Positions 1-12,053 of a stretch of DNA of 32,869 nt are shown here, one piece after another. Numbering within the stretch: position 1 is the stretch's first letter; every line of letters starts with the position of its first letter. A model generated the notes under the pieces. That model saw nothing but the letters and a program-made list of their open reading frames with translations. It was not told the origin of the DNA and made no database searches. The DNA is from a virus (Duplodnaviria > Heunggongvirae > Uroviricota > Caudoviricetes): the IMG/VR virus record IMGVR_UViG_3300011584_000016, positions 1 through 32,869 of that record. One strand, given 5' to 3'. The translations under genes were made by a program, and so were the position numbers.

Positions 1-993
1 TTATATTTTCATCGTAGCTAATGGGTTTAATGTCACCGCATCAAACAAATGATCAGGGGCAAAGTGGGCATACGTCATCGTTTGTTGGATTTTGTGATGG
101 CCCAGGACTCGTTGAAGTACCAATATGTTTCCTCCGTTTGCCATGAAATGAGAGGCGAAAGTGTGCCTGAAAGCGTGAGTTGCCTGTCCGTCAGGTAGAT
201 CAGGAACAGCGCCTTTAATAACTTTTCGTGCAGTCTGATAGCTCGCATCCGGGAAAATCAGTTGTTTGTCGTGTACTTCAATCCTCTGCATTAACTCCAT
301 TTCCAGTTCCTTACCGATAGGAACTGAACGTGATTTGCCATTTTTGGTTTTTGTAAATGTCACCATGCCGTTAACCAGTCTCTGCCTGGTTAATTTTGCA
401 CCTTCACTCCATCGTGCACCGGTGGACAGACAAAGTTTGGCTATCAGCTTGTTGTCGCCTGTTAACTCTGTCAGAACCGTTCTAATCTGTTCGTCAGTAA
501 AATATCCCTGTTCTGATTCGGTCAGTTTCAGTTCTGCGAGTCCAGTCATTGGGTTGTTATCCCAGAATAGATCCAGTTCTTTCAATTTACTGAACACTGA
601 CTTCAAGTATCGTTGTTCATTATTTAACGTTTTTGGCGCGATCCCTTCTGCCCGCCGTTTTGTTCGGTACTCTGCAAAAAGCTGGGCGGTGAGTTGGGTT
701 ATACGTGGATTATTTAAGCGCGCGCATGAGGCATTCAAAATCCATAACCGGTTTTTGCAGTCGGTGAGCGTTTGCCCGTGGTTCTTCCACCACAATTCGA
801 TCAGTTCAGATAACCGACGCCGATCAGCTGGTTTTTCCAGCCATTCTTTATTATTAGCACTGGCTATTATCCAGCGTTCAAAGGTGACAGCCTCTGATTT
901 AGTGGAGAATGAACGCCTGACGCGCTTCCCGGAACGCCCCGCAGGCCGAACATCAACCATGTATTTTCCGTTGTCCTTTTTAGTAATGGTCAT
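1..993 (-). CDS. int: Phage tyrosine integrase (site-specific recombinase)
   Basis: 330-aa ORF; C-terminal region HAFRHTFASHF...LGH...TMTYAHF fits the tyrosine-recombinase catalytic R-H-R-Y pattern; sits at the prophage edge next to a repressor gene. Confidence 0.9.
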   Translation of the reverse strand: MTITKKDNGKYMVDVRPAGRSGKRVRRSFSTKSEAVTFERWIIASANNKEWLEKPADRRRLSELIELWWKNHGQTLTDCKNRLWILNASCARLNNPRITQLTAQLFAEYRTKRRAEGIAPKTLNNEQRYLKSVFSKLKELDLFWDNNPMTGLAELKLTESEQGYFTDEQIRTVLTELTGDNKLIAKLCLSTGARWSEGAKLTRQRLVNGMVTFTKTKNGKSRSVPIGKELEMELMQRIEVHDKQLIFPDASYQTARKVIKGAVPDLPDGQATHAFRHTFASHFMANGGNILVLQRVLGHHKIQQTMTYAHFAPDHLFDAVTLNPLATMKI

Positions 994-1097
994 TTGTCAT
1001 TTTCTCCGGCTGTGAATGCTGGTCGTCATTTGCTGACGAACTGAACTGGGTAACACGGGCAGCAATATATAACTGTTCAATTTGTTGCCAGTTCGGG

Positions 1098-1376
1098 TTA
1101 TTGGTTAATAGATTGTTTTGGCGAGCGAAGAGGGAAAAGCGCCGGATCGATTTGCCCGGATGATGCTGCGGTCTTATTTGTCATCATCCATAACGTATAT
1201 TTATTGAATCTGGGGTTTCGGGTGATCTTCAATAAATCAATATCAGGCAGCGTCATTATTATTTGCTGCCTGAATTGATACAGTGTCTTCTTCGAAATAT
1301 CACAAAACATCGCGAATTCGCAGATAGTGAGATTTTCAGCATTAATTATCAAGAATAAGCGGTTACGCAAGGACAT
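1098..1376 (-). CDS. P2 C-type repressor paralogue (HTH), integrase-proximal
   Basis: About 92 aa from the internal Met (MSLRNRL...); C-terminal PRFNKYTLWMMTNKTAASSGQIDP parallels PRFQKYTLWLMSDITAPEAGQIAP of the repressor at 2471-2731 and the C-terminus I recall for P2 C; start could instead be 1403. Confidence 0.6.
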   Translation of the reverse strand: MSLRNRLFLIINAENLTICEFAMFCDISKKTLYQFRQQIIMTLPDIDLLKITRNPRFNKYTLWMMTNKTAASSGQIDPALFPLRSPKQSINQ

Positions 1377-1419
1377 ATACACCTCGATTGCTATTATTGG
1401 CATTCAGGGCGCAAATGTA

Positions 1420-1437
1420 TTGTTCGCACACGAACAA
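1420..1437. promoter_or_regulatory. Operator-like inverted repeat TTGTTCG-CACA-CGAACAA upstream of the integrase-proximal repressor gene
   Basis: Perfect 7-bp arms with 4-bp spacer, about 45 bp upstream of the 1376 start, at the edge of an AT-rich promoter-like stretch (1440-1557). Confidence 0.35.
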
Positions 1438-1557
1438 ATTTTAGCCAAAACTGCTTATCAGTAATTCATGTATGTAATAAATGGTAATTATCAATCAATA
1501 TAAAATATATGTTGTATATTTTTTGTGTAATTTATTAAAAAGTAATATATCGCACAA

Positions 1558-1992
1558 TTAGAACAGCTCTTTTACCAAAGCGATTATGACTCCTGCTGTA
1601 GCGAAAAGGGCAGAGCATAGCCATATCATTTGCTTATGTAATCCCTTTGCAAGATCTTCCCTGGTTGCGGACCTGGACTCTTTGAGTTCGCCGCTAATCT
1701 GTGCCTTAAGCTCGCGCATATCTCCGGTCATCTGCGCACGGAGTTCTTTCATATCCCCAGTTATCTGCGCCTTGAGTTCACGCAGATCGCCCTTTGAGGC
1801 GAAGTCATCAGCGCGCGCGTTGAGATGGGTAAGTTCTTTAACAATTACACCGGTATTGTCTTCCAGTTTTTCAACGCGTTTTATTAGGCTGTTCATGCCG
1901 TTGCCTCCGTCGTCACTACTGTTTGTGGACTCATTATTTATGGGTACCTGACGTTCTCTTATATGATGAACATTATCCTTAGTCTGACTCAT
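1558..1992 (-). CDS. Coiled-coil protein with C-terminal transmembrane anchor (DUF1640-like), unknown function
   Basis: 144 aa; tandem heptad-like repeats GDLRELKAQITGDMKELRAQMTGDMRELKAQISGELKE then hydrophobic tail MIWLCSALFATAGVIIALV; overlaps the upstream gene by 14 nt. Confidence 0.6.
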   Translation of the reverse strand: MSQTKDNVHHIRERQVPINNESTNSSDDGGNGMNSLIKRVEKLEDNTGVIVKELTHLNARADDFASKGDLRELKAQITGDMKELRAQMTGDMRELKAQISGELKESRSATREDLAKGLHKQMIWLCSALFATAGVIIALVKELF

Positions 1993-2428
1993 TTTTGCAT
2001 TCCTTGCGATTCTCTTCTATCCATGCGACGACCGGGCGGGCGCGATAAATGCTGATATGCCCGCAGTTTGGGCAATTAATTTTATATTCGACATCGGCTA
2101 ATCTTATTTTTGTATGAGTATTCACAAACACGGGCGTTACATACCAGAGAGTATTATCAGCTGCGAATTTCTCCTGATCGATTTGCGATAAAGAGTCATA
2201 GTTTTCGGGAGTCTTTGCACCGTTATAAACTCCGTTTTCGGACATTGTTAATTTAGTAAATCCACATGATATGCAGAACTGAGCGGCGTTTTTTGACATC
2301 AAAAATTCAGCGAATAATTCAGGGGTAACTTGTTGTAGCCTTTTCATAAGTTCTGGTGATGGTTCTCCATAGCGGGAATTACGAGGTGGGCGTATTGGGG
2401 GTATAAATGTATCATTATCTTTTGACAT
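1979..2428 (-). CDS. Hypothetical zinc-ribbon protein (CISCG ... CPNCGH)
   Basis: 149-aa ORF with two Cys pairs about 70 residues apart; lies between the distal repressor gene and the coiled-coil gene on the same strand. Confidence 0.55.
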   Translation of the reverse strand: MSKDNDTFIPPIRPPRNSRYGEPSPELMKRLQQVTPELFAEFLMSKNAAQFCISCGFTKLTMSENGVYNGAKTPENYDSLSQIDQEKFAADNTLWYVTPVFVNTHTKIRLADVEYKINCPNCGHISIYRARPVVAWIEENRKECKNESD

Positions 2429-2470
2429 ACATTTTCCTTATGTATTATTCGCCCGCAGTGCGGGCGGTGA

Positions 2471-2731
2471 TTAACCGGTCTTTTTCTCTTCTTTGGTAAC
2501 TGGTGCTATCTGACCTGCTTCTGGTGCGGTGATGTCAGACATCAGCCATAGCGTGTATTTTTGAAAGCGCGGGTGTTGGGCGATTTTAACCAAAGCACTA
2601 CCACCAGGTTCATACCCCCCCGTTTCATATTTCCTAAGCGTATTTATAGATAAGTCAATAACTTCGCAAAACTCATTCTGACTAAGACCTTCGGCTGCTC
2701 TAATCGCTTTTAATTTTTCACCAAGTTTCAT
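2471..2731 (-). CDS. P2 C-type immunity repressor (XRE-like HTH), adjacent to the switch region
   Basis: HTH-like LSQNEFCEVIDLSINTLRKYE; C-terminal FQKYTLWLMSDITAPEAGQIAP resembles P2 C as I recall it; likely ATG at 2731 rather than the TTG at 2746 used by the ORF track. Confidence 0.7.
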   Translation of the reverse strand: MKLGEKLKAIRAAEGLSQNEFCEVIDLSINTLRKYETGGYEPGGSALVKIAQHPRFQKYTLWLMSDITAPEAGQIAPVTKEEKKTG

Positions 2732-2739
2732 TTGACAGT

Positions 2740-2785
2740 AGTCCAATTAGACATTAAATCTCCCTTCATGCAGTCTAATTAGACT
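2740..2785. promoter_or_regulatory. Switch-region operator-like sites: AGTCCAATTAGACA (2740-2753) and perfect palindrome AGTCTAATTAGACT (2772-2785)
   Basis: Two related 14-bp sites with centres 32 bp apart, between the divergent repressor gene (start 2731) and the first rightward gene (2829). Confidence 0.4.
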
Positions 2786-2828
2786 ACTTGAAGACAAGCG
2801 AAACCAATCTAAACAGACAGGATATCAA

Positions 2829-3248
2829 ATGACACCAGAGCAAAACAGAGCTTTACCCGCACATCAGGAGGCTGATCCTGGTTACTACCCGGTCGTTGAA
2901 CTGGCACAAGGCGCGTTTTTACCCGAACAGACTCAAAGCAATCATCAGCGCCGCGCTCGGCGATCCCCTGATAGTCGTTCTGAACGTGAACTAATGGCAA
3001 TTGACCGCGCACTGAAACATATCCTTAGTAGTGGCATTAAACCGGTTTTAACAGTGCAGGAATTTTCCGAATTCTTCGGACAGTCTTTGCGTAAGGTTCA
3101 AAGCGATGCTGAGCGCGGCTATCTGCCATTAGTGCCGCGTGTCGATCCAAATCGTCGCGAACTAAGACAAATCAATATGGTTGCATGGTATGCCAGAGCT
3201 TTTATGACTGCCGAAGCCAGCCTGACAAAAACGACAGCGTTTAATTGA
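2829..3248 (+). CDS. Putative Cox/excisionase-like early regulator
   Basis: First rightward ORF after the switch; AGGA 8 nt upstream of ATG; N-terminal 55 aa low-complexity so true start may be ATG 2994; assignment by position only. Confidence 0.4.
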   Translation: MTPEQNRALPAHQEADPGYYPVVELAQGAFLPEQTQSNHQRRARRSPDSRSERELMAIDRALKHILSSGIKPVLTVQEFSEFFGQSLRKVQSDAERGYLPLVPRVDPNRRELRQINMVAWYARAFMTAEASLTKTTAFN

Positions 3249-3256
3249 GAGGAAAA

Positions 3257-3493
3257 ATGTTTAATCCACTTAACACAGAAAAGGCGCGGGAAGTCGATCC
3301 GTTTTATGAAGGGTACGACGTGCCGGTATATGTGCAACCGGGTAAGCGACTGCCCGTCGCGATCGAATCCCGCGAAATGGAAATGGCAATTCTGGCCGCG
3401 TTTGATTACGGCATTGACGCACTGAACGATGACGGACGCCACCAACTGGACCGCCTGATCGCTGATCTAAAGCTTGCCATTACTGGCAGATAA
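3257..3493 (+). CDS. Hypothetical early protein
   Basis: GAGAGG RBS 6 nt before ATG 3257; about 79 aa. Confidence 0.5.
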   Translation: MFNPLNTEKAREVDPFYEGYDVPVYVQPGKRLPVAIESREMEMAILAAFDYGIDALNDDGRHQLDRLIADLKLAITGR

Positions 3494-3504
3494 ACGGGTG
3501 CGCA

Positions 3505-3726
3505 ATGAGCCAATATTTTTTTTCGGGGATATTTAATGTTGCGGTTTTTATTTTGGGGGCCGTTGTTGTTTGGTCCTACGGAAGATTAAAAAACAGTAGC
3601 AACAGAATCCGTTTTATTGACGCATTACACAGGGATATTGAAGCGGCGGCACCATTATTTTTAGATGTATTTTGTGGCTGGTTGCTAATATTTGGCGTCG
3701 TTTCCCTTTCAGAGTGTCTTTTATGA
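3505..3726 (+). CDS. Hypothetical small membrane protein
   Basis: 73-aa ORF with two hydrophobic stretches; weak RBS. Confidence 0.3.
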   Translation: MSQYFFSGIFNVAVFILGAVVVWSYGRLKNSSNRIRFIDALHRDIEAAAPLFLDVFCGWLLIFGVVSLSECLL

Positions 3727-3953
3727 GTGAACAACAAATTCCTTCATTCGCCAGTCTATTACGTAACGGTTGCCAGGTCACACATTGCAAATCGACGCGC
3801 GGCTGGATTGAAACACCGGACGGGCGTTATTTTAAGCCTGAACCGGCAAAAGTTCAGTTTATTAAGGGCAGAAACAGGCCTTTTGTATATACGCAAAAAA
3901 TAAACAGGGCCGTAATAGCCGCATTGATTAAATTAATTAAACGCTATTTTTAA
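3723..3953 (+). CDS. Hypothetical early protein
   Basis: About 76 aa from MSEQQ; ATGA overlap with the previous ORF suggests coupling. Confidence 0.4.
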   Translation: MSEQQIPSFASLLRNGCQVTHCKSTRGWIETPDGRYFKPEPAKVQFIKGRNRPFVYTQKINRAVIAALIKLIKRYF

Positions 3954-4030
3954 TTAACTGAATTTATTAAATATCACACATCACTTTAAAAAGTGGTGCG
4001 GATTCTTTCAACCTAAAAACGGGTAATTAT

Positions 4031-4246
4031 ATGTCTATGACTAAACGGGATGAATACAGTTTTGTATTGCATTCATTTTTACCGGAGCTTGAAGAGCGCG
4101 GAATGACTATAAAAACGCGTAACGCAGGCGAATTAACACTGGCATCAACAGATCCTGATGTTGTTGCATTTATACAATCCATGCGCCGTCGTCTTACTAA
4201 TGCGCTGAGCCGTCCATCTCTTCCCTCTTCACCATACGGAATCTAA
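4031..4246 (+). CDS. Hypothetical early protein
   Basis: 71-aa ORF ending 2 nt before the exonuclease gene. Confidence 0.4.
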   Translation: MSMTKRDEYSFVLHSFLPELEERGMTIKTRNAGELTLASTDPDVVAFIQSMRRRLTNALSRPSLPSSPYGI

Positions 4247-4248
4247 TC

Positions 4249-4836
4249 ATGAATAATATAATGATTGACATTGAAACATTAGACAATAAACCAACTGCCG
4301 CAATTGTTTCTATTGCTGCCGCATTTTTCGATCCCCGAACTGGCGAGATTGGGATGTCTATTTATATTCCCGTCAATGTTGCTGATGCTCAATACAAAGG
4401 GGCGACAATTGGTGCGGATACTGTTAAATGGTGGATGAAGCAAAATTTATGCGCAAGAGATGAGCTTGTATCTGATGCTGGCTTGCCTTTATCAGAGTCG
4501 CTCTATAAGTTGAACGATTTTTGTTGTTTTTGTGATGATTCAGACAATTTAAAAATATGGGCGCGCGGCACTGATTTTGATTTACCAGTTATTTATCACT
4601 CAATGCGCCTGACAGGGATTCGTCCGGCCTGGAATTTCTGGAATGCTCGCGACGTTAGAACGGTTGCAGAAATCGCGCTGACAATATGCGGTCATTCATC
4701 AATGCGCGCGGTTCTGGAACATCCGCATCACGCAATGAATGACGTTATTAACCAGATTGCCAGATTAAGCGACGATATCAAAAACATTTCTGCCGTTCGC
4801 GCGGAGAAGGTGAATCATGATTCGCCGGAAAAATGA
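4249..4836 (+). CDS. DnaQ-like (DEDD) 3'-5' exonuclease
   Basis: N-terminal IDIETLD (Exo I-like acidic motif) and C-terminal HHAMNDV (Exo III-like H-x4-D); 195 aa. Confidence 0.7.
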   Translation: MNNIMIDIETLDNKPTAAIVSIAAAFFDPRTGEIGMSIYIPVNVADAQYKGATIGADTVKWWMKQNLCARDELVSDAGLPLSESLYKLNDFCCFCDDSDNLKIWARGTDFDLPVIYHSMRLTGIRPAWNFWNARDVRTVAEIALTICGHSSMRAVLEHPHHAMNDVINQIARLSDDIKNISAVRAEKVNHDSPEK

Positions 4837-5038
4837 TAATTGCCCCGCCTGCGTTGTTGATCAGGCACACAATTTAATTAATGAATTCCGACAGGGTCGC
4901 CGCGATAAAGTGCGGCGGCTGGCGACTGGTTATCTGTCAATTGCAATCGGCAGATGTTGGCGGTTACTGAGTAAAAACGACGGCCAGCAATGGACTTTAT
5001 TAACTCACGAACGATATAACAAGGAATATAAAAAATGA
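4817..5038 (+). CDS. Hypothetical small protein (CPAC motif)
   Basis: 73-aa ORF overlapping the exonuclease 3' end by 20 nt and ending in ATGA overlap with the Dam gene. Confidence 0.35.
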   Translation: MIRRKNDNCPACVVDQAHNLINEFRQGRRDKVRRLATGYLSIAIGRCWRLLSKNDGQQWTLLTHERYNKEYKK

Positions 5039-6051
5039 TCAGACCGTTTTTGAAGTGGGCAGGTGGAAAAACTCGCGCTTTGCCTGAGCTGCTGCCGCAC
5101 TTGCCAAAGGGTTATTGTCTGATGGAACCATTTGTTGGCGGCGGTTCGGTATTTTTAAACACAAGTTATGATAAGTATGTTTTAGCTGATATTAATTCAG
5201 ATCTGATAAATACGTATGAAAACGTGAAACATCGCACTAATCTATTTATTGACGTTGCACGGGAATTATTTAAAGAAGGTAATTCAAAAGAATATTATTT
5301 AAAGATTCGCAAAGAATTTAACGAACTAAATACAAGTTACCACGAATGCGGTCGCCGCCCCTTATCACTGAGATTGTCGTTAATGCAGTCGGCGCGGTTT
5401 CTCTATTTGAATCGGCACGGTTATAACGGCGTTTGCCGCTATAACAATAAACTGGAATACAATGTTCCGTTTGGTCAACATAAGACAGCGCCGTATTTTC
5501 CCGAAGAGGAGATCCGGCGGTTTGCAGAAAAGGCGAATGATACAAACGCAGTGTTTCTCAATCTTAATTTTGATGACACATTATCAATGCTGACATTCGG
5601 GCCTAATCTCGTTATTTACTGCGATCCGCCATATTTACCCGCCAGCGAAACCGCAGACTTTACCACGTATTACGGACAGAGATTTACGCGGGACGATCAC
5701 TGCCGCTTAGTTCAGAAATTATTAGAAATAAGTGCGCGTGGTGCTGCAAAAGTTGTTATTTCAAACAGCGACACACCCGCCGCGCGAGAAATATACGTGT
5801 CGTTTACATTTCAGGAAATTAATGTTCAACGGTCAGTCAGTGCCAATACCAGCAAACGCGCGACTGCAAAAGAAGTGATCGGATATATCCCACATTGTGA
5901 ATATTGCGGGGGTCGTCTGATTACTGGCCGTCCGTGTAGTTGTGACACCCAACGCCGCACGGTTTGGGGTTGCCCTGATGGCGGCTGCGGAGCTTGTGAC
6001 AGTGTCGATCTTTGTGCGAGCGCGGGGAGTGAATTCTATGACCAGGACTAG
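5035..6051 (+). CDS. dam: DNA N6-adenine methyltransferase (Dam-like) with Cys-rich C-terminal extension
   Basis: N-terminal FLKWAGGK (AdoMet motif) and catalytic DPPY; C-terminal about 60 aa carry 9 Cys (HCEYCGG...CSCD...GCPDGGCGACDSVDLC). Confidence 0.85.
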   Translation: MIRPFLKWAGGKTRALPELLPHLPKGYCLMEPFVGGGSVFLNTSYDKYVLADINSDLINTYENVKHRTNLFIDVARELFKEGNSKEYYLKIRKEFNELNTSYHECGRRPLSLRLSLMQSARFLYLNRHGYNGVCRYNNKLEYNVPFGQHKTAPYFPEEEIRRFAEKANDTNAVFLNLNFDDTLSMLTFGPNLVIYCDPPYLPASETADFTTYYGQRFTRDDHCRLVQKLLEISARGAAKVVISNSDTPAAREIYVSFTFQEINVQRSVSANTSKRATAKEVIGYIPHCEYCGGRLITGRPCSCDTQRRTVWGCPDGGCGACDSVDLCASAGSEFYDQD

Positions 6052-6235
6052 TGCGCCCGCCGTCATTACCCGTGTATTTGACATATGGGAAATAAAAAAG
6101 AATGAGCAGTATTTAATTGATGCCGAAGTGTTTATTGACGGGTTTTACCGCAATGAACAGATCACGCGTTCCACGCGATATCAGGCAATTAGAGTTTTAC
6201 CCGGTGACAATATTGATTTGAGGGGTGCGGAATGA
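6038..6235 (+). CDS. Hypothetical small protein
   Basis: About 65 aa from ATG 6038 with GGGGAG upstream; the ORF-track start at 5942 lies inside the Dam gene. Confidence 0.35.
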   Translation: MTRTSAPAVITRVFDIWEIKKNEQYLIDAEVFIDGFYRNEQITRSTRYQAIRVLPGDNIDLRGAE

Positions 6236-6636
6236 CAATTCACATAGTAGCGATTCAGCCGGATTATTTTCAGCCAGTGTTAAAACGCGAAAGACGCGCG
6301 GTGCTGTTAAATGAGGGGGATTATATAAAAGAAGATTTTTTATTTATCCGTGAGTTTGTTTTTGACGATACAGGAAAGAATCCGCCAACGGCGACAGGGG
6401 CTTGTGTCGCCGGGGTGATTACTGATGTTTATAAGACGGGGACTGGCGATGTTTTGCTGAGTTTTGATCTGTTATTTGTGTATAGCTATGTGCTTATTAA
6501 TTGGGGTCTGACAAGAGGTGATCTGCTTAAACTGAGTATTTACCCTGACTTTCTTGAAGAGCTTTTTACCGCGCACCCTCATTCGCCCGTATTTTACGCG
6601 ATCGCTTACCGCATGATTGAAGAGGCGGATTTATGA
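6232..6636 (+). CDS. Hypothetical protein, possibly ASCH/DUF3850-like
   Basis: 134-aa ORF coupled to the upstream gene by ATGA overlap; fold call is from general resemblance only. Confidence 0.4.
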   Translation: MTIHIVAIQPDYFQPVLKRERRAVLLNEGDYIKEDFLFIREFVFDDTGKNPPTATGACVAGVITDVYKTGTGDVLLSFDLLFVYSYVLINWGLTRGDLLKLSIYPDFLEELFTAHPHSPVFYAIAYRMIEEADL

Positions 6637-6673
6637 CCGCCTATTACAACGAAATCGATCCATTCGCTGCTCT

Positions 6674-9181
6674 GTGGCTGGCGTCTATCAATTGACGCGC
6701 GGACGCTACGCCCCAACACCGCCGCCCCCGTTCCTGGGGAGCGGCGCAGACACTACACTGTATCCATACGCGTGGAACGCCCCGCGCGCAGCAATTAGCG
6801 TTGACCGGACGCCGAAACATGATCCGCAGGAGTTCGCCGCAGAATACGAATTCTGGCAGCGTGTAAAATCCACTTTTCAGCCATATCCGACATTCATCCG
6901 CCGCCGCATGATGGCGCGCGTTGAACGTTCTCACGAAAAGCAGGGGCGACACGTCGCGGCGCTGGCGCTGCGAGATATCGCCAGCCGCGAATTAATCCAC
7001 ATTTCCGCCGTTATGCAGCAGTATTCCATAAGCCCGCCCCGCAATGCTGGGCGGGTTTATGAAACGCCGTTTGTTGGCCTTGAGCCGCTCTATCACAATT
7101 TTGAACAACTCACCGATCTGATCCGTCGTTTCGACACACTGCCTGATTATTCGCCGGAGGATGTTGAATTACTGGCGCAGGACGTCGCAATTTACGCAAA
7201 CGCCACACTGGCAGAAATTGCCGCAGATTGTGAACACCTGGACGAAATCGAAACTGGCCGGCGGTTTTACGCTGAATTGAAAACGTTGGCTAACGTTTTT
7301 CACGTCACGGCGGCAAGGGCAAACAAAAAACGCTTGTTGCCCGACGAGCTGGCGGCAGCGATCAGCAAAATGATCGACGCGCGCTACTGGAACCGCAATT
7401 TACTGCGTTACGCCGTGCGCTGGCGGGAGCATTTGCGGATCTCCCTGGGCGACGTGCGCCGCAGCGTGTCAACCTATTGTAGTAAAGAACGCGTGAATGC
7501 GTGGCGGGAGCGTCGCGAGCGTAATCGCGACATCATGTCAAGACTGGAAATAGAAGACGTTGAATCAGGCGAGCGTTTTTCACTGCTGGAGCAGATAGAA
7601 AAAAGCGCGTCCAATCCAGCGATACGCCGCACCGAGCTTATGACGCGAATCGGCGGTTTTGAGCGAGTAGCCAATGAGCAGGGATTTGTCGGCAGCTTTT
7701 TTACTATTACCGCGCCGTCAAAATATCACGCGTTTACCGCGTTTGGTCATCGTAATCCTAAGTGGCAAGGCGCTAGCCCGCGCGAGTCTCAAAAATACCT
7801 GAATACCATTTGGCAGCGTATCCGCGCCGAGCTGGCGCGCCAGGAAATCGGCGCTTTTGGCTTACGTGTAGCCGAGGCGCATCACGACGCAACGCCGCAC
7901 TGGCACGGCCTGTTATTCACTCTGCCGGAGCATCAGGAGGCGCTACGCGACGTCATGCAGCGTTACGCAACAGCTGAGGACGCCGACGAATTAACGACGA
8001 AACACGGCATACAGCCGCGTTTCGATTTCAAACCGATTGATCCCGAGCGGGGAACCGCTACGGGCTATATCGTCAAATACGTCTCTAAAAATATCGACGG
8101 TTACGCGCTGGATAATGAGCGCGACGACGAAAGCGGACGTCCACTGAAAGACACGGCGCAACATGCGACCGCGTGGGCGTCTACGTGGGGGATCAGGCAG
8201 TTCCAGTTTTTGGGCGGTGTGCCGGTGTCGGTGTACCGCGAACTGCGGAGGCTGGGGAATCAACAGGCCGCTGATCAGATTAATCCGCTGTTTGCCGAGA
8301 TCCACGCCGCAGCGGACGCGGGGGATTGGGGCGGGTTTGTTAATCTCATGGGCGGACCGCTGGCAAAACGCGCGGATTTACCGTTGCGCACGTTTTATCA
8401 GGATAAACCGGAGCCTAACAGCTGGGGCGAATATCTGACGGTTATCCGTGGTGTATTTATGCCGCTGATTAATATCCCGCCGGTAATAACCAGGTTGCGG
8501 GATTTTCGCATTGTTAAAAAATCGCCGGAGAGCGCGGAGCGCCCCGGTGATGGCTGTTCATCTTTTGACCTTAAGGGCGCGTCTGCGCCCGCTAGGACTC
8601 GTGTCAATAACTGTACGGAGCATGAAAAAACAGCAAAAGATGAACAAAATATAAACAGTGAAGCGGATTTTTTGGGAGAGAAAAACAGCGGTGCGCCGCC
8701 ACCGGGAGATCCCGAACAGGTTCTGATCGGCAAATTGACACGGGAACAACGCAAACGCCTGCGCGCTGAGTGTCTGACGCACAAAAAACAGCGTAAACAA
8801 TCGGCTGCTGACGAGTTCGAAGCGCTGGCGAATCAATTAGCGACGGCGGACTGTTCGGGCACGGACCAGCTGCGCGCAGAAAATTATTTACGTGCGGCGG
8901 CGGTCATTCGCGAGACTGAAAAACCGGTCACGGCTGCAGCGGCAGAACTGGCCGCGCGCGTCATGGAGTGGGCGAAATTGCGCAAAATACCGCTGGGCCG
9001 CGCGCAATCGCTGGCACTGGCGCAAGGCGGACAGGCGACAGTTATTGACAACGTTTACCGGGCTAACATGAACACCGGCGAACTGATCCTGATTGACACC
9101 TTCCAGCCGTGGCGGCGTGTGCTGGCGAAAAAACAAACTGTGGAACTGATGGCGCGCTGGCGGGCTGTGGTAACCGTATGA
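6674..9181 (+). CDS. A: Rolling-circle replication initiator, P2 gpA-like HUH endonuclease
   Basis: HUH motif TPHWHGLLF, catalytic tyrosines GYIVKYVSKNIDGY, and N-terminal GRY...YAWNAPR resembling P2 gpA as I recall it; start uncertain (GTG 6674, TTG 6617/6692 or ATG 6908). Confidence 0.85.
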   Translation: MAGVYQLTRGRYAPTPPPPFLGSGADTTLYPYAWNAPRAAISVDRTPKHDPQEFAAEYEFWQRVKSTFQPYPTFIRRRMMARVERSHEKQGRHVAALALRDIASRELIHISAVMQQYSISPPRNAGRVYETPFVGLEPLYHNFEQLTDLIRRFDTLPDYSPEDVELLAQDVAIYANATLAEIAADCEHLDEIETGRRFYAELKTLANVFHVTAARANKKRLLPDELAAAISKMIDARYWNRNLLRYAVRWREHLRISLGDVRRSVSTYCSKERVNAWRERRERNRDIMSRLEIEDVESGERFSLLEQIEKSASNPAIRRTELMTRIGGFERVANEQGFVGSFFTITAPSKYHAFTAFGHRNPKWQGASPRESQKYLNTIWQRIRAELARQEIGAFGLRVAEAHHDATPHWHGLLFTLPEHQEALRDVMQRYATAEDADELTTKHGIQPRFDFKPIDPERGTATGYIVKYVSKNIDGYALDNERDDESGRPLKDTAQHATAWASTWGIRQFQFLGGVPVSVYRELRRLGNQQAADQINPLFAEIHAAADAGDWGGFVNLMGGPLAKRADLPLRTFYQDKPEPNSWGEYLTVIRGVFMPLINIPPVITRLRDFRIVKKSPESAERPGDGCSSFDLKGASAPARTRVNNCTEHEKTAKDEQNINSEADFLGEKNSGAPPPGDPEQVLIGKLTREQRKRLRAECLTHKKQRKQSAADEFEALANQLATADCSGTDQLRAENYLRAAAVIRETEKPVTAAAAELAARVMEWAKLRKIPLGRAQSLALAQGGQATVIDNVYRANMNTGELILIDTFQPWRRVLAKKQTVELMARWRAVVTV

Positions 9182-9351: not shown

Positions 9352-10674
9352 ATGTACGCTGAGTTAAATGAATTTATAAATGCTCTAGATAAATTAAAAG
9401 ATTATTTTGATGAGTCTGAAAAATCATATGGGCATAAAAATAAATGGCTTATAGAAGCATTTGGCATCGGTCATCCTGTAATGTTGCCAAAAGACTTTTC
9501 TGACTATATTGAAAGAATGATCGAGAAGTCAAAAAAATTAGAGATGCTTAAATTAACTGATTTCGAACTAGATGAACTCGACTATGTAAGAAAAGTCGTA
9601 ACAAAGGTACATTCTGACCTTGCTCCTAGCTTTTATAATGGAAATGGTGTACAAGCGATTCCTTCATTTTTAATGACCATGACATATATATCTTCATTTT
9701 TAGATTCTTTGATTTCCTTCGACCGACTCCAGGATACGGATGCCGTACCTCAGAAATTAGCACGTAAAATACGGAGTATGGATGCAAGAGTAAGACAAGC
9801 TACTCCAGAAATTGAAACACTGGAAGGTAAAATTAAATTGATTAACGATGCATATGCCGCAGCTGATAATCTACCGGTATATATGGAAGAGTTAAATAAA
9901 TACAAGGCAGAATTAACGGAAATAAAAGAGTACATTTTAAAGGCAAAAGAAGAAGCATCTCATTCGAATGTCTTAATGGATGTTTGTCTAAACGAAGGGG
10001 AAAAGATAAAAGAAGAGTTAAATGCAAAAAAAGAGATCGCAGAAAATTATCTTTCGAAATGTGAGGAAGCTATTCGTGCTTCGACTTCAAAAGGGTTAGC
10101 GGGAGCTTTTGAGATCAAAGCGAATAAGTTAAACTGTAGCATTCGTTTATGGGTAGCAGGATTATCTGCGGCATTAATTGCCGGTGGGTTTGTTGGTTAT
10201 GAAAGGTTAAAAGCATTATCCAATGTTTTAGCGCAACCAGATACCAGTGCAATAGTGATTGCAACGCAATTAATACTATCCATATTTAGTATCGGCGCGC
10301 CGCTTTGGTTTGCGTGGTTGTCTACAAAGCAAATTAATCAAAGATTTAAGCTAGCAGAAGATTATGCCTTTAAGTCTGCCGTTGCAAAAGCATATGAGGG
10401 TTACAGAAAAGAAGCATCGCAACTTGATGATGGAACATTCGCTACTCGGTTGTTTGATTCTGCTTTAACCCGTCTAGAGGAAGCCCCATTAAGATTTGTC
10501 CAAGGTGATGATCACTCAACACCATGGATGGAAATGTTAAACTCTAAAGCTTTTTCTAAATTTCTTGATTCTTCGATTGATAATGTAAACTATGTTAAAA
10601 ATATCCTTGATCGTAAGGCTAAACCCTCTGTAGTTGCAGATAAGCCACAGCAGATGGAAAAGGGGACTGAATAA
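9352..10674 (+). CDS. AT-rich cargo gene: 440-aa coiled-coil protein with two predicted TM helices, unknown function
   Basis: GC content visibly lower than flanking phage genes; GAGG RBS; hydrophobic segments IRLWVAGLSAALIAGGFVGY and AIVIATQLILSIFSIGAPLWFAWL; no nucleotide-binding or nuclease motif seen. Confidence 0.7.
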   Translation: MYAELNEFINALDKLKDYFDESEKSYGHKNKWLIEAFGIGHPVMLPKDFSDYIERMIEKSKKLEMLKLTDFELDELDYVRKVVTKVHSDLAPSFYNGNGVQAIPSFLMTMTYISSFLDSLISFDRLQDTDAVPQKLARKIRSMDARVRQATPEIETLEGKIKLINDAYAAADNLPVYMEELNKYKAELTEIKEYILKAKEEASHSNVLMDVCLNEGEKIKEELNAKKEIAENYLSKCEEAIRASTSKGLAGAFEIKANKLNCSIRLWVAGLSAALIAGGFVGYERLKALSNVLAQPDTSAIVIATQLILSIFSIGAPLWFAWLSTKQINQRFKLAEDYAFKSAVAKAYEGYRKEASQLDDGTFATRLFDSALTRLEEAPLRFVQGDDHSTPWMEMLNSKAFSKFLDSSIDNVNYVKNILDRKAKPSVVADKPQQMEKGTE

Positions 10675-10706: not shown

Positions 10707-11019
10707 AGCTTGGTAACAACAGGTATAATGTTTTTTGTTTTTGTTCTGGCGACATCATATCGATCAGCGTTTTGATAGCGCGGTCAGATGAAAGCGCGCT
10801 GGGGCTTAATGTGTGAGAAAATGTTATATTAACGACGAAAGTATGACCGCACTCAACGTTATTACAGGCGCAATAAACATCTGATAGATGGGGATGTTTC
10901 CGCACGGTCTTTTTGATCGTTGAATTGCCGTTGCATTCCGGACAGATAATTTTCGGGCTGCGCAATTTGTTTCCCCTTAATCTATTTTTGAGCGGGGTAT
11001 ATTTTAACCGTTTAGCCAT
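10705..11019 (-). CDS. Ogr/Delta-family zinc-finger protein (late transcription activator-like)
   Basis: CPEC-x20-CAC-NNVEC-GHTF resembles the Ogr zinc finger (CQNVNCSATF in P2 Ogr as I recall); start overlaps the portal stop by 1 nt. Confidence 0.55.
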   Translation of the reverse strand: MAKRLKYTPLKNRLRGNKLRSPKIICPECNGNSTIKKTVRKHPHLSDVYCACNNVECGHTFVVNITFSHTLSPSALSSDRAIKTLIDMMSPEQKQKTLYLLLPS

Positions 11020-12053
11020 TATTTTTCATCCTCTATCGCTTTCGGTTTTTTGAATAACACCTGCATTGCGCGGGTAATTTCAGAATCACTATTGATTGCA
11101 TTCTCAATTAGCGCCTGCATGGGCCAGACTTCATCTAATTGATATACGGCACGGACTTTTAACGGGTCGCCCAGTCCGCCCACGTTATCCGGAATAATGC
11201 CCGCAAGGCCAGGCGGGAAGCGATGGGCGGTTAACTGGTCCTGTGCGGATATGCGCTTGATATTCACATATTCATCTTTTGTTGCGACATCACCCACAGG
11301 GATAATTTTAACGCCGTCTGGTTTACCGTTGGGGATGTTAATAAACATACTGCGGAAATTACCCGCGCCTTTTGACTGTTCTATTTTTTCAGAAATGGCC
11401 TTTTCCATTTCTGGTGATAAATCCGGATCGGTGGCATACAGGATATAACCTAAATGCGCCCCATTACGATAATATTTGCGGCGAAACATGGTCGCGTCAC
11501 TATTTAACATCGCCGACTGGATGCCGCCTAAATAATCCGGTTTTCCGTAAATCTGCTGCAACGTATCGTACTGACGGATAAAAATAATATCTTTTGCGGC
11601 ATATTCTTTATATTCGCCGTCGCGTAACAATAATTTTGTTTTGCCGTCAGTGGAACGCCGCACATAAACAGACGGCAGCGGGTACAGGCGCACGACCTGC
11701 CCGAAGCCGTTGCGGATCTTTAACAGCGCCACGTCACCGAACGTCACGAAGTTAACGGCCAGCGCCAGGGCGGTTTCAGGCGTCAGACCGCCGCCGCGAA
11801 GAAAACCCGCCGCGACCATTTTCGCGCGCGCCCCCAGACATGCGCCGTGGTACGTTGCGATGTCGGGCAATTTTGCCAGCGCTTCCCGGTCAATGGGCGG
11901 CGTCCAGTAGCCGTCTCCTTCATCTGTTACGCCATCATATGAACCCAGGCACGGCACGCGCTCGGCGTCGCCGAATTCCACGCTAAAAGACATCTGTTTT
12001 TGAATAGCTGGCGCGAGGGCCGGGGCTGGTTGTTGTTTTTTACGTTTTGCCAT
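11019..12053 (-). CDS. Q: Portal protein (P2 gpQ-like)
   Basis: 344 aa, the length I recall for P2 Q; directly downstream of the large terminase on the same strand. Confidence 0.9.
   Translation of the reverse strand: MAKRKKQQPAPALAPAIQKQMSFSVEFGDAERVPCLGSYDGVTDEGDGYWTPPIDREALAKLPDIATYHGACLGARAKMVAAGFLRGGGLTPETALALAVNFVTFGDVALLKIRNGFGQVVRLYPLPSVYVRRSTDGKTKLLLRDGEYKEYAAKDIIFIRQYDTLQQIYGKPDYLGGIQSAMLNSDATMFRRKYYRNGAHLGYILYATDPDLSPEMEKAISEKIEQSKGAGNFRSMFINIPNGKPDGVKIIPVGDVATKDEYVNIKRISAQDQLTAHRFPPGLAGIIPDNVGGLGDPLKVRAVYQLDEVWPMQALIENAINSDSEITRAMQVLFKKPKAIEDEK

Follow-up and report, generated by a model that had tools for sequence, protein, structure and literature searches.

We analysed a 32,869 nt stretch of viral DNA (Caudoviricetes; IMG/VR record IMGVR_UViG_3300011584_000016, positions 1 to 32,869, hereafter the window) and found that two adjacent minus-strand genes next to its phage repressor gene form a conserved, translationally coupled, co-inherited and horizontally mobile two-gene cassette. 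The upstream gene encodes a 149-aa acidic zinc-ribbon protein (Zn) and the downstream gene a 144-aa coiled-coil protein with a C-terminal membrane anchor (CC). The left 3.3 kb of the window, in which they lie, is the lysogeny-control end of a P2/186-like prophage, with a minus-strand transcription order of C repressor, 149-aa open reading frame (ORF), 144-aa ORF, 101-aa ORF and tyrosine integrase. An initial annotation of the sequence had described the first three of these ORFs as a repressor-linked operon reminiscent of lambda cI-rexA-rexB; their coordinates and lengths were all confirmed in the sequence, as was the overlap of exactly 14 nt between the Zn and CC genes (ATGAGTCAGACTAA). The pair may give the lysogen a defence against other phages, whether superinfection exclusion or abortive infection, a tentative reading that we hold at slightly less than even confidence. 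The pair and the segments of the CC protein are as follows, TM denoting a transmembrane segment.

1979..2428, minus strand: acidic Zn-ribbon protein, 149 aa (phrog_4293, E 1.7e-20, function unknown)
1558..1992, minus strand: tail-anchored coiled-coil protein CC, 144 aa (ORF, TM statistics and alignment)
CC residues 1–32, minus strand: disordered N-terminus and Gly-rich linker (sequence)
CC residues 39–45, minus strand: conserved RVEKLED (alignment; family form RVxxLExD)
CC residues 64–69, nt 1786–1803, minus strand: beta-layer-like FASKGD (sequence)
CC residues 68–111, nt 1660–1791, minus strand: 11-residue repeats (sequence)
CC residues 122–140, nt 1573–1629, minus strand: TM segment (best 19-residue hydrophobic window, mean Kyte-Doolittle 2.36)

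Zn and CC are real genes and not chance ORFs because their families are conserved, with 54 representatives of Zn and 13 syntenic partners of CC that share invariant residues. Each gene has an AAGGA Shine-Dalgarno sequence 8–9 nt before its ATG, and both are called by the Prokaryotic Genome Annotation Pipeline (PGAP), as ‘hypothetical protein’, in seven E. coli genomes. Among approximately 45 fetched loci, every one that was long enough had a Zn homologue followed by a partner with a Gly linker, a coiled coil and a C-terminal TM. A set of 24 of these loci, representing 23 distinct Zn sequences, was tabulated. The Zn and CC genes overlapped by 1–17 nt in 21 of the 24; a Gly run was present in 22 partners, and the TM lay at the extreme C terminus of 23, the exception being locus L036, where the CC ORF ends without a TM. 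The pairwise identities of Zn and CC were correlated (Mantel r 0.70, a value reached in 0 of 2000 permutations), so that the earlier description of the genes as a two-component unit holds on the counts of both overlap and co-inheritance.

The same annotation had considered the two proteins uncharacterised and unlike any P2 core gene, and both statements stand. Remote-homology searches gave no Pfam, NCBIfam or PADLOC family that claims either protein, a literature search with their RefSeq accessions found no paper, neither has a relative of solved structure, and a Zn homologue occurs in only 14 of 50,697 phage records. Accessory pairs of prophages that are expressed in the lysogen and include a membrane component are already well known as a kind; what is new here is the parts, namely a zinc protein without a fold match in PDB or BFVD and a beta-layer tail-anchored stalk. 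In one 77.7-kb viral contig (locus L044, 5115-5378) the Zn ORF is only 87 aa long and retains just the C-terminal part of the family, with an intact partner; transposase-like ORFs lie directly upstream, which suggests that this Zn gene was disrupted by an insertion sequence.

In unrelated phages the pair recurs either in slots that are transcribed from a repressor promoter, the rexAB slot of lambda among them, or in classical moron positions, and every locus examined with the pair lay in a temperate-phage context. The arrangement of window positions 1000–2554 was found, at 98% identity, beside mipA in 7 of 5426 complete E. coli genomes. DNA identity to these E. coli prophages ends at window position 2554, inside C, and the N-terminal DNA-binding half of their repressor is therefore of a different immunity type. 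No DNA match was found in the 50,697 phage records. The gene order recurs in one IMG/VR contig (L017), whose Zn protein is identical. More than 30 P2/186-like prophage loci carry the pair within their repressor/integrase operon (promoter Pc), in one of two alternative positions. In the first, the repressor is followed by zero to two other genes, Zn, CC and int, as in the window and the P2/186-like loci L019, L020, L021 and L023. In the second, found in Klebsiella, Enterobacter and many IMG/VR prophages, the order is C, int, Zn, CC and the prophage end; in more than 25 loci the start of Zn touches or overlaps the stop of int, and a strong terminator lies 3′ of CC in L008. A third slot, between the host junction and ogr, was seen in one P2-like prophage (L012) with terminator-like hairpins on both sides. 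A fourth, upstream of the tape-measure gene, is used in SPN3UB-like siphophages and a phage-plasmid; here a DUF6246 gene lies upstream of the pair, and the neighbouring genes encode antirepressors and small products with features of signal peptides or lipoproteins. The fifth is the interval between cI and PL of E. coli lambdoid prophages (10 of 5426 genomes), where a 230-aa lambda CI-like helix-turn-helix (HTH) repressor gene is followed by Zn (132 aa), CC (130 aa), a hairpin with a T run, a PL-like promoter and kil, gam, bet and exo (L047 and L049); the terminator lies 3′ of the pair in L047.

Several of these positions have been described as sites of cargo genes. The abortive-infection gene bstA is also found in the cI–N interval of lambdoid phages, which is described as a hotspot (PMC8585504); P2 has minor defence hotspots in its int-att and int-primase intervals (PMC13586616); and in HK97 the exclusion moron gene 15 separates the gene for the tail assembly chaperone from that for the tape measure (PMC3594210). 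Morons have been defined by a promoter and terminator of their own and a foreign composition (quoted in PMC3594210). In the window no promoter or terminator belonging to the pair itself was detected, the two genes being embedded in the Pc operon, and at 0.39-0.52 the pair does not stand out in GC content. Two further observations concern the neighbours of the pair. In L018 a 300-aa protein with AbiJ_NTD4, DUF7014 and Abi_C domains is encoded at 7280-8182, two genes downstream of the pair and after int. In three 186-like contigs a conserved protein of approximately 205 aa (M.VNS.G..NR.AGRDF...) is encoded between the CI-like repressor and Zn genes (L019 4204-4815, L021 4316-4951 and L023 4021-4650); it gave only sub-threshold Pfam matches (DndB, GemA) and may likewise be cargo of the interval between repressor and int.

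The close association with int could also indicate a module that stabilises the prophage or controls lysogeny, either resembling a toxin-antitoxin system or acting as a membrane tether that sequesters a regulator of induction, integration or excision. We consider such a module improbable. Two small genes that overlap, the first for an acidic soluble protein and the second for a membrane protein, would suit it, as would the coincidence of the Zn start with the int stop in more than 25 loci and the presence of another toxin-like gene (ParE-like) in the window. Against it, neither protein showed homology to type II toxin-antitoxin families in Pfam, NCBIfam or PADLOC, and the pair does not depend on int, since in siphophage tail regions and beside ogr it lies well away from both int and repressors. 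In the window, moreover, the pair lies inside the repressor operon, and a consensus scan called no promoter-like site between C and the Zn gene.

The Zn gene has Cys codons at 2273-2275, 2264-2266, 2072-2074 and 2063-2065, corresponding to C52, C55, C119 and C122. An exhaustive HMMER search of 1.84 billion proteins returned 54 cluster representatives of the family at E<=1e-3, with 19 at <=1e-10, and in 45 aligned sequences C52, C55, C119, C122, G123 and W136 were invariant and a ‘VTPELFxxFL’ helix preceded the first CxxC. Two CxxC knuckles are thus conserved family-wide as in a C4 zinc ribbon, zinc binding itself being predicted; the zinc-ribbon models of Pfam gave only sub-threshold matches. 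The AlphaFold2 (AF2) model of the Zn protein had a mean predicted local distance difference test (pLDDT) score of 91.4, and no fold match to it was found in PDB or BFVD at E<=1e-3. A sequence profile of the family found nothing in PDB below E 0.29, and the protein had no matches among the PADLOC models. A zinc finger of the Ogr/Delta or TraR/DksA type was rejected on the absence of a Pfam match, a different Cys spacing (C-x2-C-x63-C-x2-C) and the acidic isoelectric point (pI) of 6.1. A generic nucleic-acid-binding role was likewise dropped because the family is mostly acidic (pI mostly 4.6-6.5). A word-index protein search retrieved only near-identical proteins for both genes and the 45-sequence profile added few; a scan of genome contigs returned only two weak, partial actinobacterial matches, which were treated as spurious.

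For the CC protein, the C-terminal TM anchor named in the initial annotation was located at residues 122–140, with Lys-Gln-Met-Ile-Trp ahead of the hydrophobic segment and four residues after it. The ‘coiled coil’ of that annotation could be refined to three near-perfect 11-residue repeats and a degenerate fourth (GDLRELKAQIT, GDMKELRAQMT, GDMRELKAQIS and GELKESRSATR) after FASKGD, beneath which Tandem Repeats Finder detected no repeat at the DNA level. R39, E44 and W124 were invariant in an alignment with the 13 syntenic partners. A single-sequence AF2 model was of low confidence (mean pLDDT 59.4, with residues 1–29 below 50) and placed helices at 31–67, 70–105 and 111–143, with a break exactly at 68–69. 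A profile of 14 syntenic partners matched the trimeric beta-layer coiled-coil crystal structures 7o92, 6h9l and 5apt at E ~1e-3. The beta-layer consensus is [aliphatic]-A-T-K-[polar]-[D/E] (PMC4786415). An F-A-T/S-K-x-D motif was present in 18 of the 24 tabulated partners, that of L019 having FATKADLQN nonads; the FASKGD of the window matches the consensus in a relaxed form, with Phe at the first position and Ser/Gly. We infer that CC is a tail-anchored, N-in stalk at the cytoplasmic side of the inner membrane, which would probably be trimeric because the matched beta-layer structures are.

Partner proteins ranged from 93 to 210 aa in length. The central 9- and 11-residue repeats of partners differ in copy number among relatives, and in the partner genes (5485-6066) of the near-identical prophages L028 and L030 the number of GGD repeats differs (GGDGGSSGGG versus GGDGGDGGDGGDGGSSGGG); the lengths of stalk and linker therefore evolve quickly.

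Curated family models matched the partner family at low scores. Five of 14 members matched Pfam XhlA (PF10779) at E<=0.01, the best at E 7.8e-7 and 29.6 bits, and all were below the gathering cut-off of 34.7 bits; these matches came to E 7.8e-7 to 7.7e-6 in short members of the family, and the window CC protein had no XhlA match at E<=1. Against the Pfam CCDC90-like/DUF1640 model (PF07798), CC scored 17.7 bits (E 0.0034), below the cut-off of 33.5 bits, and 3 of 14 members matched, the best at E 1.7e-5. Two of the 14 had sub-threshold matches to DUF2730, which we take to be the family of the Mu releasin, and CC itself had a weak match to DUF883 (E 0.051). Matches to PHROGs 6324, 3556 and 6136, all of function unknown, were strong; those to phrog_1193 ‘hemolysin’ (5 of 14) and phrog_689 ‘holin’ (3 of 14, E 1.4e-8) were weaker. 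Among PADLOC models CC matched only PbeC (E 0.001, 15.9 bits), a coiled-coil match. A tblastn search of phages with the 144-aa protein found nothing, for which we suspect the low-complexity filter.

These similarities raise the question of a role in lysis, in which an XhlA-like protein would assist or time the phage's own holin under regulation by the Zn protein and would matter in lytic growth. Mu releasin gp25 offers a model for such holin assistance, and the family matches to XhlA, DUF2730, phrog_1193 and phrog_689 all point in this direction. Like XhlA of the B. subtilis element PBSX, CC is a short coiled-coil protein with a basic-Trp motif followed by a C-terminal TM. XhlA, however, has no Zn partner and is encoded in a holin-endolysin cassette. 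Synergy with the holin XhlB is predicted for this membrane protein, and the vesicle production driven by PBSX depended on all three of xhlA, xhlB and xlyA (PMC5589764). No annotated context that we examined places the pair beside an endolysin or holin; the pair instead occupies regions transcribed from the repressor promoter, that is, the P2-like leftward C/int operon and the lambdoid interval from cI to the PL terminator. With a patchy distribution that is not that of a core function, and XhlA matches that all fall short of the Pfam gathering score and are lacking for the window protein, a lysis accessory seems an unlikely explanation.

Lysogenic conversion of host physiology appears more unlikely still, whether by a stress- or ribosome-associated tail-anchored protein like ElaB, YqjD or YgaM or by a virulence ‘hemolysin’. 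The weak DUF883 (E 0.051) and CCDC90-like (E 0.0034) matches share the tail-anchor topology, and one partner is named ‘hemolysin XhlA’ by PGAP. The ‘hemolysin’ label on XhlA-type partners is presumably a carry-over of naming, and a real haemolysin was dropped from consideration as the bulk of CC is predicted to be cytoplasmic. All these matches lie far below the curated cut-offs, and in the loci examined the family is confined to temperate-phage contexts. On the other side, lambda-like phages of Mannheimia haemolytica carry an XhlA-domain gene beside cI for which a virulence role was proposed (PMC4553209). The gene table of these phages shows no zinc-protein partner (PMC4553209), and they suggest that XhlA-like tail-anchored proteins recur beside repressors.

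The likeness of CC to the CCDC90-like class, which includes MCUR1 and CCDC90B, consists in a beta-layer motif, here relaxed, that opens a stalk ending in a C-terminal TM. It differs in its score, which is under the cut-off, in its N-terminus, a disordered peptide with a Gly linker, and in the separate Zn protein whose gene precedes its own; that the Zn protein is a head supplied in trans to the CC stalk is speculation. For the class of beta-layer, tail-anchored coiled coils that includes mitochondrial MCUR1/CCDC90B, CC would provide a member from bacteria that is open to experiment.

The operon around the pair in the window comprises the following features.

1..993, minus strand: tyrosine integrase, last gene of the leftward operon in the window (Pfam Int_N, E 7.5e-32; Phage_integrase, E 3.4e-21)
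1098..1403, minus strand: second C-type repressor paralogue, C′ (phrog_147, E 5.9e-16)
1404..1557, no strand: AT-rich intergenic gap after the pair, 154 bp, ~29% GC (composition; no terminator by scan; fold z -0.57)
2450..2466, minus strand: GC-rich hairpin in the C-Zn spacer, 7-bp stem CGCCCGC/GCGGGCG, 3-nt loop (sequence)
2471..2746, minus strand: P2 C-type immunity repressor (Pfam HTH_3, E 5.6e-10; phrog_147, E 4.6e-29)
2740..2784, no strand: operator-like 13-bp repeats AGTC(C/T)AATTAGAC at 2740 and 2772 (repeat search; direct family D1, inverted pair I1)
2829..3248, plus strand: Cox-like gene, first of the early operon, divergent (phrog_575 ‘Cox-like excisionase and repressor’, E 7.4e-9)

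C and C′ were both assigned as repressors by their phrog_147 homology and their places beside cox or int. The C ORF is 91 aa long counted from TTG 2746, and the true start is likely the ATG at 2731; an equivalent gene is annotated by PGAP in E. coli prophages, as is the same 139-aa coding sequence for the Cox-like gene. The two copies of AGTC(C/T)AATTAGAC are spaced 32 bp apart in the divergent region between C and cox, which has the character of a switch because of these repeats and the divergent Cox-like ORF; their operator role is our assumption from the arrangement of the P2 C operators. The operon was found to continue beyond the pair, through the AT-rich gap and C′ to int, and the gap, C′ and the hairpin between C and Zn are features that the initial annotation had missed. 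C′, which separates the pair from int, is a 101-aa ORF (92 aa counted from ATG 1376). It shares 40% identity with C (E 1e-16) and ~40% with the bona fide C repressors of 105 P2-like phage records; Pfam HTH_3 was found in C and not in C′. All seven E. coli copies of C′ are intact, yet unannotated by PGAP, and C′ is absent from the other contigs in which the pair lies between repressor and int. It could be the relic of an immunity swap or represent a second immunity specificity.

The initial annotation had also stated that no terminator intervenes between the repressor and the pair. A consensus scan indeed called no minus-strand terminator from C through Zn, CC and C′ to int, with the caveat of the GC-rich hairpin in the 42-nt C-Zn spacer. 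Its stem is perfect and is followed by AAUAAUAC, and the RNA fold of the 76-nt stretch 2415-2490 has an energy of -17.5 kcal/mol (z -2.65). A terminator was considered and dropped, since the hairpin lacks the U tract of a canonical intrinsic terminator and was not called by the scan; it could act as an attenuator of transcription or a stabiliser of the RNA. On the coding strand the hairpin (CGCCCGCACTGCGGGCG) is similar to the terminator hairpin that precedes the pair in L012 (5852-5876; GCCCCGCACTGCGGGGC plus a T run), and it may be a leftover of the cassette flank. Promoter-like matches at 1531..1504 and 1091..1064 were discounted as evidence, such matches being fewer than expected by chance.

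The proposal of lysogen protection would work as follows. Zn and CC would together be one mobile accessory cassette (moron) of temperate enterobacterial phages, which in the window prophage appears to belong to a lysogenic operon running from Pc through C, Zn, CC and C′ to int; because it is embedded in that operon, the pair would be made in the lysogen. CC would be a tail-anchored, probably trimeric alpha/beta coiled-coil stalk of XhlA/DUF1640-like type with a flexible Gly-rich linker and a short N-terminal peptide, onto which the acidic Zn-ribbon protein would dock as a soluble partner. Sensing or gating would fall to the Zn protein, and the stalk in the membrane would disturb either the membrane itself or the timing of a holin. 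Expression in the lysogen, a membrane-anchored Zn-CC complex and the exclusion or abortion role are all inferred here from sequence.

This proposal draws on the coupling and co-inheritance of the two genes, their position in lysogenic operons, the beta-layer and XhlA-like architecture of the partner, the exclusion-type slots occupied by the pair (cI-PL and the HK97 gp15 region), the minor defence hotspots of P2, the AbiJ/Abi_C-like gene in L018 and an accessory, patchy occurrence (7 of 5426 E. coli genomes and 14 of 50,697 phage records). A number of points weigh against it. Neither protein has homology to a PADLOC defence protein, an NCBIfam family or RexA/RexB, and the XhlA and releasin-like relatives work in lysis and not in defence. 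Only 1-9 periplasmic residues follow the tail anchor, so that it is difficult to see how the protein would block DNA entry from the periplasm in the classical way. Expression of int-distal genes from Pc may be low in P2 lysogens, and read-through could be attenuated by the 2450-2466 hairpin. Position is a weak argument, as the same slots carry virulence and other conversion genes, and the Spearman coefficient in the co-inheritance test was only 0.13, the Pearson/Mantel signal therefore coming mainly from close relatives.

The comparison with lambda rexAB is the closest in position. As in lambda, two genes lie downstream of the immunity repressor and encode one cytoplasmic and one inner-membrane product, and in the E. 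coli lambdoid prophages the Zn/CC pair fills the exact cI-to-PL slot and is followed by a terminator. The parallel drawn in the initial annotation is thus literal there as regards position, and does not extend to homology (a Pfam scan of both proteins at E<=1 found no Rex family) or to the membrane partner. RexB is a polytopic membrane protein, and RexA is a protein of ~279 aa without a zinc site. The membrane protein of the window, unlike RexB, has one hydrophobic segment, a single-pass tail anchor and not a polytopic channel, and the soluble protein, unlike RexA, is a 149-aa C4 zinc protein. The mechanism of RexAB itself was still called poorly understood in 2021 (PMC8585504).

Other exclusion genes share single features with the pair. 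HK97 gp15 is also a small inner-membrane protein of a temperate phage, and the pair in siphophages likewise lies in the tail region upstream of the tape-measure gene; gp15 differs as a single YebO-like protein with no zinc partner, no coiled coil and no homology to the pair. Vibrio phage K139 glo, reportedly located between cI and int, and bstA of Salmonella phage BTP1 are exclusion or abortive-infection genes in a repressor operon, as proposed for the pair, and encode unrelated single proteins, periplasmic in the case of Glo and cytoplasmic and DNA-associated in that of BstA. A search of PADLOC-DB 2.0.0 gave no significant match of either Zn or CC to a defence system.

A more specific form of the protection hypothesis, which we regard as doubtful, is that the pair is an unrecognised two-protein anti-phage system of temperate enterobacterial phages, with a novel-fold C4 zinc protein as a detachable head or sensor on a tail-anchored, trimeric beta-layer stalk (a split version of the DUF1640/XhlA-like architecture), causing membrane depolarisation or premature holin-dependent lysis on infection and amounting to a RexAB equivalent in the same repressor-linked slot, built from unrelated parts. 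If the pair does protect lysogens, it would be a new compact (~0.9 kb) defence or exclusion system whose parts have no relatives among known systems, and it would offer a second genetically tractable, repressor-linked pair of soluble and membrane proteins to compare with RexAB. The repressor-int and int-att intervals of P2-like prophages share cargo with the lambda cI-PL slot and the HK97 gene-15 region, and cassettes shuttle between these classical lysogeny-expressed slots of unrelated phages.

Elsewhere in the window, the genes rightward of the Cox-like gene are those for Fil, a 3′-5′ exonuclease, the ParE-like protein, Dam, gpA, portal and terminase, and no Rfam families were found within window positions 1-6000. 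The gene for the ParE-like toxin domain (PF24732, E 2e-17; 4817-5038, plus strand) overlaps the start of the Dam-type adenine methyltransferase gene (5035-6051, plus strand), a pairing in the early operon that recurs in E. coli and Enterobacter relatives. A 440-aa ORF (9352-10674, plus strand) occupies the interval from gpA (6617-9181) to portal (11019-12053), which is the main defence hotspot of P2; it had no Pfam or NCBIfam match and only marginal PADLOC matches (LmuB, MTase_I, E 8e-4). At the other end, the integrase gene adjoins mipA in E. coli genomes. A stretch within it (127-162) matched four E. coli genomes (e.g. NZ_AP024126 and NZ_AP024123) over 36-37 nt at 97% identity, under a ‘CRISPR’ feature, which suggests that spacers have been acquired against this phage lineage.

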